Below are positions 3,001 through 6,000 of a DNA stretch of 64,000 nucleotides, piece by piece. How positions within the stretch are numbered: position 1 is the stretch's first letter; each line of letters opens with the position of its first letter. A program made the position numbers. The DNA comes from Erysipelotrichaceae bacterium (GTDB lineage Bacteria > Bacillota_I > Bacilli_A > RFN20 > CAG-826): positions 133,850-197,849 of the forward strand of contig SVBF01000007.1 of the NCBI GenBank assembly GCA_015058945.1, written 5' to 3'.

Positions 3001-6000
3001 TGTATAATTTGGGGAACAAATGTGCGCTATTGCGCAGGAACACATCATGAACCAGACATTCTCGAAAACGTTACGGAAGCTCCGAACGGCGCGCGGGTTA
3101 ACCCAAAGTGCCCTCGCGGAACGTCTTTTCGTCACCAGACCCACCATCGCCCGGTGGGAATCCGGCTCGCGTTTGCCTGACGTCGTCATGATCAAACGGC
3201 TGTCCCAGGTTTTAGGCGTCGACGTGGACTCTCTCCTTTCCGCCGCCCAAAGCGACGAATGCCCCAACGTGATCCTCGTGGATGACCGCAAATTGGTCCT
3301 CACGGGCGGTCTGCCCATTTTGGAAGAGGCTTTGCCTAATGCGAGCGTCACGGGATTCACCGACGGCGACGAAGCCTTGGAGTTCGCTAGGTCCAACCGC
3401 GTCGCCTTGGCCTTCCTCGACATTGAGCTGCGCGGCATGAGCGGGCTCGACCTTTGCCGGAAGCTTCTTGAGATCAACCCCCGCACCAACATCGTCTTCT
3501 TGACCGCCTATGCAGACTATTCCCTCGACGCCTGGGCTACCGGCGCAAGCGGCTTCATGCTCAAACCCATCACCGTCGAAGGAGTCAAGGAACAACTGAA
3601 AAAACTGCGCTACCCCTTCTATTTGGGAGAAGAGGTGGCATGACCTGGTACGAGATCCTCGCCTATACGGTGAGCGGGGCGCTATTCATGCTCACGTCCA
3701 TCGGCATCGGGTTTTCTTTTTACTCCCCCGCGTTAGACAAATGGCATCGCCGTTATTTGGTCACCCTCTTCTCGATCCAGCTCGTCTGCATCACCCTCGC
3801 CTTTATCGACGCGATCATCTTTTTCCGCTCCCCTACCTTGTTCGTTTTGGACCGCGTCATCAACTTCATCGTCTTTTTCCTCATGTTGCCTTTGGTATCC
3901 ATGGCCGCCGTCTTCTTGGTCCATTCCTGCGGGGAAGACTGGAGGAAAAGCCCTTTGATCCGGATCGTCTTCGGACTCTCGATCGTCTATCTCGCCATGC
4001 TGATCACCGCCGAGTTCACGGACGTCTTTTACCAGCATAAGGACGAGGAGCTCTTCATCCGCGGCCCGCTTTTCCCTTTGTTGGTCGCCCCACTTGTGGC
4101 CATCGCCCTGCTCACCTTCGTCGGCGTCATCGTCAAAAGAAAGAAGTTGCCGCGGGAATACTATTCCGCCTTCCTCGCCTTCTTGCCTCCGCTAGCGGTC
4201 GCCTTATTCGTCCACATGTTCGTCCTCTTCGAGTTCTTTCTCTTTCTGGCGGTCGGGTTATGGGCGATCGTGATCCTCGCCTTAGTCGTGCAAAAGAACA
4301 CCGACGAGCATCTCCGCCAGCAAAAGGAGATCATGAACCAGCACGCCTCGATCTTGATGCTGCAGATGCGCCCCCACTTCATCTATAACACCATGACGAG
4401 CATCTATTACCTCTGCGACCAAGACCCCGCGAAGGCCAAGCAAGTCACCGTGGACTTCACGACCTACCTCCGCAAGAACTTCACCGCCATCGCTAGCGAT
4501 ACCCTCATCCCCTTCACCGACGAACTAGAGCATACGCGCGCCTATTTATCCGTGGAGCAAGCCCAGTTCGAAGATAGCCTCTTCGTCACCTTCGATACGC
4601 CCCATACCCTCTTTCGCCTGCCCCCGCTGACGCTGCAACCCATCGTGGAAAACGCCGTCAAGCACGGCATGAGGGAAACTAACGCCCCGATCCATATCTC
4701 CGTCACCACCAGAAAGACGGATAAGGCGAACGAGATCATCGTCGAGGACGATGGCCCCGGCATAACGCCTTCCGACAACAACGAGCCCCACATCGCCCTA
4801 GAGAACATCCGCCAAAGGCTCGAGATGATGTGCAAAGGCACCTTATCGTTCTCCCCTCGCGAGGAGGGCGGCACGGTCGTGAAAGTGACCATCCCCTTAA
4901 CCTAGGCAAAACGAAAACCCATAACGCGGCTAGTCAATCATCATTCGCGCTATGGGTTTTATTTCGCCTTAGAACAAGACGCGGAAGAGAGCGAGGAGGA
5001 CGTTGATGAGCTTCGCCCCAAAGGAGAGTTTGAAGGAATCGTCGATATGGCGCGACACCGAGAACATGTGCTCAAAGTCGGATTTGATGTCCGCGACGCA
5101 TTCGTGCCCATAGAGCAAGGCGCCGCATTCGAAATGGTGGGTCAAGGAACGGAAGTCCATGTTGATCGTGCCCACGAAGGCGGTGTCGTCGTCGCTTAAG
5201 CACATCTTCGCATGGACGAAGCCCGGGGTGTATTCGTAGATCTGCACCCCCGCCTCACGCAAGGCGGCATAAGAACCGCGGGTCAAACAGAACACCGCCT
5301 TCTTGTCGGGGATGAAGGGGGTGATGATGCGCACGTCCACCCCGCGAGCCGCGGCATCGCGTAAGGCCTGCATGAAGCGGAAATCGATGATGAGGTAAGG
5401 CGTGGTGATATAGAAGTACTTTTTGCTCCTAGCGATGATGTTCAGGTAGTTGGCTTCGCCGACTTGCTCCTCATAAAGCGGGCGCGGGCCATCGCCGAAA
5501 GGAACCAAGACGCCCTTTTCTTCGTAGCGCTTGGGGTTTGGGTTCATGTACTTGGGATAATCGAGCGACTTGCCCGAAGCGGGGATGAAGTTGATGAAGA
5601 AGAGCGTCGTGAGCGTGTTGACGCCCGGGCCTTTGACGCGGATGCCGGTATCCTTCCAATGCCCGAGGCGGTCGTTGCGGTTGATGTATTCGTCGCCGAG
5701 GTTGATGCCGCCGGTGAAGGCGATTTCGCCGTCGACCACGGTGATCTTGCGGTGGTCGCGGTTATTGAAGACGCCGCTGACGACCGGGGTGAAAGGGTTG
5801 AACTTATGGGCGTCGATGCCTTCTTTGCGGAGCTTCTTGTAGTAACCGCTCGGAAGCATCGTCACCGTGCCGACGTCGTCGTACATGAAGTGCACTTCGA
5901 CGCCTTCTTTGGCCTTTTGGACCAAGATCTCGTGGATCGCGTCCCACATCTGGCCAGGGTCGACGATGAAGTATTCCATCAAGATGAACTTCTTCGCGCC

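Follow-up and report, generated by a model that had tools for sequence, protein, structure and literature searches.

What does it mean for a response regulator when its receiver stands behind the DNA-binding domain instead of in front of it, and which genes might such a protein control? This question is raised by two paralogous gene pairs present on a 64,000-nucleotide (nt) stretch of DNA from an Erysipelotrichaceae bacterium (assembly GCA_015058945.1, contig SVBF01000007.1, positions 133,850 to 197,849); we refer to this entire stretch as the window, and all coordinates below are window positions. In each pair, the gene for a regulator (RR1 and RR2) in which a helix-turn-helix (HTH) domain of the XRE type precedes the receiver (REC) is followed by the gene for a predicted membrane histidine kinase (HK1 and HK2). 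An initial annotation of this DNA had called the architecture unusual and had taken the inverted order of the two domains to imply a different mechanism of phospho-control. We consider the following answer probable: the kinase would phosphorylate residue D125 of its regulator, the receiver would then dimerize, and the dimer would bind a short palindrome and activate the promoters next to it.

RR1 and RR2 carry an XRE-type HTH domain in front of an intact receiver

Both gene pairs are open on the plus strand at 3047-4905 and 33044-34923, the positions originally assigned to them. RR1 (3047-3643; 198 amino acids) matches the Pfam family HTH_3 with residues 9-62 (nt 3071-3232; 3e-15) and Response_reg with residues 75-183 (nt 3269-3595; 3.4e-18), and the same order is found in RR2 (33044-33649; HTH_3, nt 33080-33238, 1.2e-11; Response_reg, nt 33275-33601, 1.2e-14), a protein 54% identical to RR1. 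HTH_31 and HTH_19 were matched in addition to HTH_3, while LytTR was not found in the partner regulator by Pfam. The description of a kinase partner that belongs neither to the LytTR nor to the AraC type was accurate.

A monomer model of RR1 calculated with AlphaFold from a 44-sequence alignment (predicted local distance difference test score, 92.2; predicted template modeling score, 0.71) consists of a five-helix HTH domain (residues 3-68) as is typical of the XRE (Cro/C1) family, a linker of five residues, and a (beta-alpha)5 receiver (residues 74-184). Beyond the fold, the receiver possesses the acidic pair (D79, D80), the acceptor aspartate, the threonine (T153) and the lysine (K173) of its superfamily, and these residues are kept together with P174 in RR1 as well as in RR2 and are invariant in close relatives. 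The predicted phospho-acceptor of RR1 is D125 (nt 3419-3421). In a Foldseek search with the RR1 model, the top matches were all receivers, with approximately 116 receiver columns aligned; an entry of the Protein Data Bank with both domains was found neither by sequence nor by fold. The class of the receiver is ambiguous between LytTR-like and NarL-like, with similar partial scores for UvrY, BtsR, LytR, and DevR, and none of the NCBIfam equivalog cut-offs was reached by the window regulators.

The start codon of RR1 at 3047 agrees with the orthologous proteins, which begin with MNQ or MSQ and comprise 198-199 amino acids; an alternative ATG further upstream, at 3020, was chosen in one NCBI record (P0002; 207 amino acids). 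An L-R-(Y/F/H)-P motif (residues 187-190 of RR1; nt 3605-3616), positioned just after helix 5 of the receiver and beyond the end of the Pfam model, is conserved across the whole HTH-REC family.

The partner kinases possess a LytS-like core and a polytopic membrane domain

HK1 (3640-4905; 421 amino acids) was delineated by Pfam, hydropathy, and sequence motifs. Its predicted membrane part (residues 1-217; nt 3640-4290) contains six hydrophobic segments above the cut-off, which we read as six to seven transmembrane helices connected by short loops only, and is followed by a PF06580 His_kinase domain (residues 238-314; nt 4351-4581; 1.5e-17) and a HATPase_c domain (residues 332-420; nt 4633-4899; 4.4e-10). 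The paralogous HK2 (33646-34923), 47% identical to HK1, has the same layout with six to seven predicted transmembrane helices, a PF06580 domain (nt 34372-34590; 8.1e-16), and a HATPase_c domain (nt 34642-34908; 3.5e-8). An H-box of the form R-P-H246-F, an N-box (ENAVK), and the G-boxes are present in both kinases, and the kinase core aligns with that of Klebsiella BtsS with an hhalign probability of 99.4% (E 4.5e-21). The initial annotation had recognized the kinase by a sequence box; the box that it quoted contains the H-box R-P-H246-F, and the combination of PF06580, a P-H-F H-box, and HATPase_c that marks LytS-type kinases is indeed complete.

Membership in the LytS family proper did not hold up. 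What characterizes that family is an input domain termed 5TMR-LYT (PMC10653868), and this domain (PF07694) was not matched by Pfam at E<=0.1 in the window kinases; a comparison of their membrane domain with that of BtsS, based on a 51-sequence profile, gave an hhalign probability of 0.1%, a value that still leaves room for a very remote structural kinship. A GAF domain was likewise not matched by Pfam in the window kinases, and HK1 offers no space for one since only about 20 residues separate its last transmembrane segment (residues 199-217) from the PF06580 domain, which begins at residue 238. As judged from these domain searches, HK1 and HK2 are kinases with a LytS-like core and not LytS proteins in the strict sense, because neither the family-defining 5TMR-LYT domain nor GAF was detected. 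Given six to seven helices with nothing but short loops between them, the signal is probably perceived within the membrane.

Regulator and kinase form a conserved cassette common among rumen and gut bacteria

In both pairs, the regulator gene and the kinase gene overlap by the sequence ATGA, as had been noted for this locus (RR1/HK1 and RR2/HK2; GGCATGACCT and CGCATGAACG). The arrangement extends far beyond the window: at all 81 RR1-type loci, an HK1 homolog lies immediately downstream of the regulator gene, as it does at all 13 RR2-type loci with enough room to see it, so that the genes are adjacent in 94 of 94 cases. A regulator of about 200 amino acids with the order HTH_3-REC, followed by a kinase of about 420 amino acids with a polytopic N-terminus, defines a cassette of which the window contains two copies; that the pair at 33044-34923 repeats the architecture of the first had been seen correctly from the start.

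Its description as an unusual architecture can stand, but rare it is not. A search with RR1 among 5.8 billion proteins returned 6237 matches, and the best 120 of these, in which the architecture was checked, all have the Pfam domains of RR1 in identical order (73-100% identity; 193-232 amino acids). The few named matches, from Erysipelotrichaceae, Ruminococcus, and Clostridia metagenome-assembled genomes (MAGs), are labeled only as 'response regulator', and one Erysipelotrichaceae MAG protein is identical to RR1. When one genome from each species was scanned with two narrow peptide patterns, 444 stretches were confirmed. The best 80 of these encode full-length proteins 66-81% identical to RR1, and nearly all of them derive from rumen or gut MAGs; the hosts include Clostridia (Ruminococcus, Oscillospiraceae, Lachnospiraceae, Blautia, and others) as well as Bacilli, Erysipelotrichaceae, Christensenella, Selenomonadales, and four Coriobacteriaceae or Atopobiaceae, one of these four on a 350-kb contig. 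Taken together, the related loci are distributed over Firmicutes, Negativicutes, and Coriobacteriia. The wide range of hosts at such high identity points to lateral spread of the cassette in the rumen. The XRE-type partners of PF06580 kinases thus make up an abundant class in rumen and gut microbiomes that is annotated merely as 'response regulator'.

Regulators 68-70% identical to RR1 are encoded by loci L068, L071, L074, L079, and L082 (Coriobacteriaceae/Atopobiaceae and Selenomonadales MAGs), in addition to many Firmicutes; an error in binning is possible for the short contigs among them and unlikely for L079, which is located on the 350-kb contig. Several genomes carry more than one copy, sometimes in tandem (L095 and L096; L023 and L036 in RUG14275; L040 and L083 in ruminal_MAG_77).

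Each subfamily of regulators is associated with its own palindrome

The putative operator of pair 1 is a palindrome of two 5-bp half-sites separated by five bp, GTTCC-N5-GGAAC (GTTCCGAAGTGGAAC; 2858-2872), located in the divergent intergenic region between RR1 and a minus-strand gene (2117-2782). The window contains no second exact copy. The site precedes the ATG of the divergent gene by 75 nt and a minus-strand TATAAT by 36 nt; on the plus strand, the latter reads ATTATA (2817-2822). When we inspected the 260 bp in front of 81 RR1-type regulator genes, a palindrome with the consensus tGTTCCAnaaTGGAACa emerged. Exact copies of GTTCC-N5-GGAAC are present in 40 of the 81 regions, mostly at positions -100 to -135 relative to the start codon, and a form with two mismatches, mostly GTTCC-N5-GTCAC, occurs in 17 more (4.4 in shuffled sequences). 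Throughout 672 kb of loci we counted 52 exact copies, where about 0.6 would be expected as estimated from base frequencies. At other loci, additional copies follow closely on the kinase gene and precede genes that encode large secreted proteins.

Orthologs of RR2 carry GTTTC-N5-GAAAC instead of GTTCC-N5-GGAAC, as is seen upstream of the regulator genes at loci L085, L087, and L089. In the window, this second palindrome is present five times, compared with an expected 0.12 copies, and none of 100 shuffled sequences reached this number. All five candidate operators are intergenic, cluster between 27.6 and 36.5 kb around RR2, and each precedes a minus-strand gene by 60-100 nt. One of them (GTTTCGGATTGAAAC; 32956-32970) lies between RR2 and a divergent lipoprotein gene (32368-32895), with a TAGAAT 29 nt away on the minus side and a TAAAAT 25 nt away on the RR2 side. 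The others precede genes 35738-36355 (GTTTCAATTTGAAAC; 36444-36458; about 90 nt upstream of the gene and 40 nt upstream of a TATAAT), 29007-29237 (GTTTCATATTGAAAC; 29338-29352), 28273-28701 together with 27783-28238 (again GTTTCGGATTGAAAC; 28794-28808), and 26500-27618 (GTTTCATGTTGAAAC; 27684-27698); each of the last three lies 29 nt upstream of a TATAAT.

More distant relatives carry GTGGC-N5-GCCAC and related forms, and, in a small sample, the sequence of the recognition helix shifts in parallel with the half-site between the subfamilies. The family appears to have expanded by duplication, with operator half-sites that diverged as it did so. With its predicted operators and a compact pair 2 regulon of five promoters, the system is directly testable.

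Promoter geometry favors activation by a phosphorylated dimer

When the spacings between the end of the palindrome and a -10-like hexamer are tallied, 29 nt stands out as a sharp maximum (24 of 53 RR1-type and six of eight RR2-type sites); four of the five RR2-type sites in the window also keep this spacing. On the side of the regulator gene, 18 of 41 sites share a spacing of 44 nt, which forms the corresponding peak. The implied centers of the sites are near -49 for the 29-nt spacing and near -64 for the regulator's own promoter in most orthologs. At these promoters, the -10 hexamers are good and the -35 hexamers poor. We therefore favor activation, because the sites lie upstream of a weak -35 region as they do in activator-dependent promoters. 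The half-sites of the operators are 10 bp apart and arranged with two-fold symmetry, and this fits ordinary phosphorylation-promoted dimerization of the bound protein, with the two halves of the dimer in consecutive major grooves as in classical XRE repressors.

The proposed sequence of events would begin with a signal received within the membrane by the six to seven transmembrane helices of HK1 or HK2, whose PF06580/HATPase_c core would transfer a phosphoryl group to the acceptor aspartate (D125 in RR1) of the co-translated regulator. The receiver would serve as the C-terminal dimerization and switch module of an XRE-family DNA-binding protein. Its phosphorylation would favor a two-fold dimer that sets the two N-terminal HTH domains on the 15-bp palindrome, GTTCC-N5-GGAAC in pair 1 and GTTTC-N5-GAAAC in pair 2. 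The bound dimer would then activate its own operon in most genomes, along with neighboring genes whose products are lipoproteins, small membrane proteins, and further surface proteins. What the sequences show directly are the domains, the intact catalytic residues, the strict linkage of regulator and kinase, the conserved palindromes specific to each subfamily, and their constant spacing to the promoter; the phosphotransfer, the dimerization, the direct binding, and the sign of the regulation are steps that we infer.

Several observations weigh against this proposal. The -10 boxes were called by their consensus only, and roughly one in three orthologous upstream regions lacks a recognizable site. 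The RR1 site in the window departs from the pattern of its family in that the -10 hexamer is 36 and not 29 nt away, and one of the RR2-type sites has a spacing of 40 nt. The promoter-like element of RR1 (2979-3008) and the operator are separated by about 130 nt, which makes autoregulation of pair 1 doubtful in this genome. With a template modeling score of only 0.71, the relative orientation of the two domains in the monomer model is uncertain. Finally, many XRE-family proteins are repressors.

This last point is the ground for the best of the alternatives, in which the two-component system is the same and the regulator acts as a repressor on the palindrome that is released, or tightened, by phosphorylation. 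The location of the operators in divergent promoter regions, where one site is able to affect two promoters, would suit such a protein. We nevertheless hold repression to be unlikely: the sites end 29 or 44 nt before the -10 hexamer, that is, above the -35 region and not over the -35, the -10, or the transcriptional start, and the poor -35 hexamers resemble those of promoters that depend on an activator.

A second alternative leaves the receiver uncoupled from the neighboring kinase, either as a phosphorylation-independent pseudo-receiver that acts only as a constitutive dimerization module, or as a domain that obtains its phosphoryl group from a different kinase or from acetyl phosphate. It draws on the wider family, which we surveyed by clustering at 50% identity and viewing the best 150 representatives. 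About 35 of these, with identities as low as 32%, are HTH-REC proteins of full length, and in seven of the 35 the acceptor aspartate is replaced by E, N, or K. Because of these replacements, a minority of the wider HTH-REC family may be independent of phosphorylation. The window proteins and all of their close relatives have kept the complete D-D-D-T-K-P set, the kinase is linked to the regulator in 94 of 94 loci by way of overlapping reading frames, and the two proteins co-diverge, as the correlation of their identities across 84 loci indicates (r = 0.68 and 0.85). We therefore regard an uncoupled receiver as improbable for RR1 and RR2, and phosphorylation by the adjacent kinase as the better reading. 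The acceptor-less members are P0148, P0151, P0152, P0158, P0190, P0192, and P0195, some of which have also lost the Thr or the Lys. Strong matches to the HTH half of RR1 were also found in four metagenomic proteins (P0121, P0149, P0169, and P0219) of 1000-2300 amino acids that contain 7-14 tandem XRE-type HTH domains.

XRE-type HTH domains are frequent in prophages and toxin-antitoxin modules, and a weak, sub-threshold NCBIfam similarity to HTH domains of the RstR, HipB, and DicA type exists, yet the idea that RR1 is a fusion artifact of assembly or reading frame, or a phage or toxin-antitoxin Xre protein unrelated to signaling, is highly improbable and refuted as far as sequence data allow: the same architecture and length recur in the best 120 of the 6237 matches and at 80 genome loci from many species, the model is one continuous, high-confidence fold with a five-residue linker, PLSDB contains no full-length RR1 homolog on plasmids, and the neighboring genes include neither toxin nor phage genes.

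The inverted domain order does not necessarily call for a new control mechanism

The initial annotation had deduced a different mode of phospho-control from the inverted order. This does not follow. A sister family with the usual REC-HTH_3 order and a similar size of about 200 amino acids exists (P0201, P0207, P0210, P0214, and P0226), and its receivers are 38-41% identical to that of RR1. In both contigs with a visible upstream region, the sister protein is encoded after the C-terminus of a PF06580-type kinase that is 35% identical to residues 295-419 of HK1; both contigs are short, and all that they contain of the kinase is a C-terminal fragment. XRE regulators normally have their HTH domain first, with a C-terminal domain for dimerization or sensing, and the N- and C-termini of a CheY-fold receiver are found at the same pole. 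From the latter we infer that fusion at either end would put the HTH domain in a similar place. Given the sister order, the HTH-first norm of XRE proteins, and two-fold symmetric operators that fit ordinary dimerization, the reversed order would not necessarily require a new control mechanism. The permuted sister families provide a natural experiment on the way in which a receiver controls an attached DNA-binding domain.

As a wider and clearly more tentative possibility, the cassette could be an autonomous activator module that moves laterally between rumen and gut anaerobes and increases in copy number within their genomes. Every copy would then have its own operator dialect, be wired to local surface-protein genes, and respond to a membrane-sensed signal; with the REC-HTH_XRE sister family, it would constitute a matched, order-permuted pair. 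If true, this pair would show that control by the receiver is independent of the end to which the DNA-binding domain is fused.

The predicted target genes are local and encode lipoproteins and membrane proteins

The gene divergent from RR1 (2117-2782; minus strand; ATG at 2782, preceded by the Shine-Dalgarno sequence AAGGAGG) encodes a polytopic membrane protein of 221 amino acids with five to seven hydrophobic segments and without a match to any Pfam family. It overlaps by 23 nt with a downstream gene on the same strand (526-2139), and because of this overlap the two are probably parts of one operon. The downstream gene encodes a lipoprotein of 537 amino acids (lipobox AAGC) with a domain like that of the thiol-activated, cholesterol-dependent cytolysins (Pfam Thiol_cytolysin, residues 62-410, 8.3e-51); no match was reported for its approximately 125 C-terminal residues. 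Both genes are likely targets of RR1, as judged from the position of the operator candidate.

At other loci, the divergent gene encodes polytopic proteins of 219-222 amino acids or of the DUF308 type, a membrane protein of 254 amino acids, a very large secreted protein, or an ATP-binding cassette (ABC) exporter. An assignment of the 221-residue protein to the recurrent divergent family of 219-222 amino acids was rejected (hhalign probability, 0.7%), and homologs of the window's flanking proteins were not found beside the cassette in 81 other loci. Since the divergent gene differs between genomes, the comparison of loci indicates that the cassette is conserved and its targets are local.

The genes behind the five RR2-type operators are all on the minus strand. 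They encode a lipoprotein with a CBM26 starch-binding module (26500-27618), a lipoprotein (28273-28701) and, next in line, a membrane protein (27783-28238), a membrane protein of 76 amino acids (29007-29237), and a secreted or anchored protein of 205 amino acids (35738-36355). Behind the operator at 32956, a run of open reading frames (29473-32895) comprises the lipoprotein gene 32368-32895 and genes for a membrane protein of 127 amino acids (32003-32386), an S41-peptidase-like lipoprotein (29948-31891; Pfam Peptidase_S41, 4.2e-14), and a membrane protein of 114 amino acids (29473-29817). This run possibly belongs to the RR2 targets as well; co-transcription of the genes for the S41-like lipoprotein and the 114-residue protein is conjectural. 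The lipoprotein, CBM26, S41-like, and cytolysin-like targets in the window, together with the large surface proteins and ABC exporters in its relatives, suggest that gut anaerobes use the cassette to control their cell surface.

Other features of the window

A type I restriction-modification locus (6655-16623) contains hsdR (13780-16623), hsdM (12190-13764), and hsdS (11117-12193), three more hsdS-like open reading frames in alternating orientation (7650-8714, 8707-9837, and 9879-11033), and a gene for a tyrosine recombinase (6655-7569). The hsdS cluster looks like a phase-variable specificity shufflon. The minus-strand gene 37050-38342 encodes an XRE-type HTH domain fused to a DUF1016_N and a YhcG PDDEXK nuclease domain.

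Comparison with known systems

In the literature, we found neither a bacterial HTH_XRE-REC regulator nor an XRE-type partner of a PF06580 kinase described, with the proviso that older censuses of response regulators may mention them; the only related proteins to emerge were DigR, with the opposite order, and the archaeal LtrR and FilR1. Already known are the proteins themselves, which are present in databases under a generic name, and the inverted domain order, which has precedents in other lineages. The family, its partnership with PF06580 kinases, its predicted operators, and its predicted targets appear to be undescribed; the principle is not new. The PF06580 kinases thereby gain a class of XRE-type partners, in both domain orders, beside the known LytTR and AraC partners.

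Like HK1 and HK2, the kinases of the LytS/LytR, BtsS/BtsR (YehU/YehT), and YpdA/YpdB systems combine PF06580 with HATPase_c and a Pro-His-Phe H-box (PMC10653868). BtsS is a receptor with seven transmembrane helices, and the sensors of HK1 and HK2 are likewise polytopic and devoid of a large outside loop. LytS-type systems differ in their 5TMR-LYT and GAF domains and in the LytTR beta-fold output, whereas here an XRE-type HTH domain is placed ahead of the receiver. YesM/YesN resembles the window pairs in that a PF06580 kinase is joined by a regulator with a non-LytTR HTH domain. YesM-type kinases, however, have two transmembrane helices, an outside domain, and HAMP, for which no such Pfam match was obtained here, and the output of YesN is an AraC domain that follows the receiver, whereas it is an XRE domain in reversed order in RR1 and RR2.

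Precedents for a C-terminal receiver are known from fungal Skn7 and alphaproteobacterial PhyR. In the archaeal regulators LtrR (HTH-REC) and FilR1 (winged HTH-DUF1724-REC), the receiver is also C-terminal to the output domain, as it is in RR1 (PMC5847659). These four proteins differ from RR1 in their DNA-binding folds (or, in PhyR, by a sigma-like domain), their kinases, and their lineages, and none of them is known to be paired with a PF06580 kinase. DigR of Myxococcus xanthus is built from the same two domain types, with the HTH_Xre domain at the C-terminus in the conventional order, and its kinase SgmT is a hybrid GAF kinase and not of the PF06580 type (PMC3509222).

The classical XRE proteins offer a parallel to the layout of RR1: lambda cI, the 434 repressor, SinR, and the XRE-cupin proteins all join an N-terminal five-helix HTH domain to a C-terminal domain for dimerization or sensing. 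Their operators, too, are palindromes whose half-sites are spaced by one helical turn, and lambda cI acts as an activator from a site just upstream of the -35 region. What sets RR1 and RR2 apart from these proteins is that their C-terminal module is a receiver, predicted to be fed by a membrane kinase.

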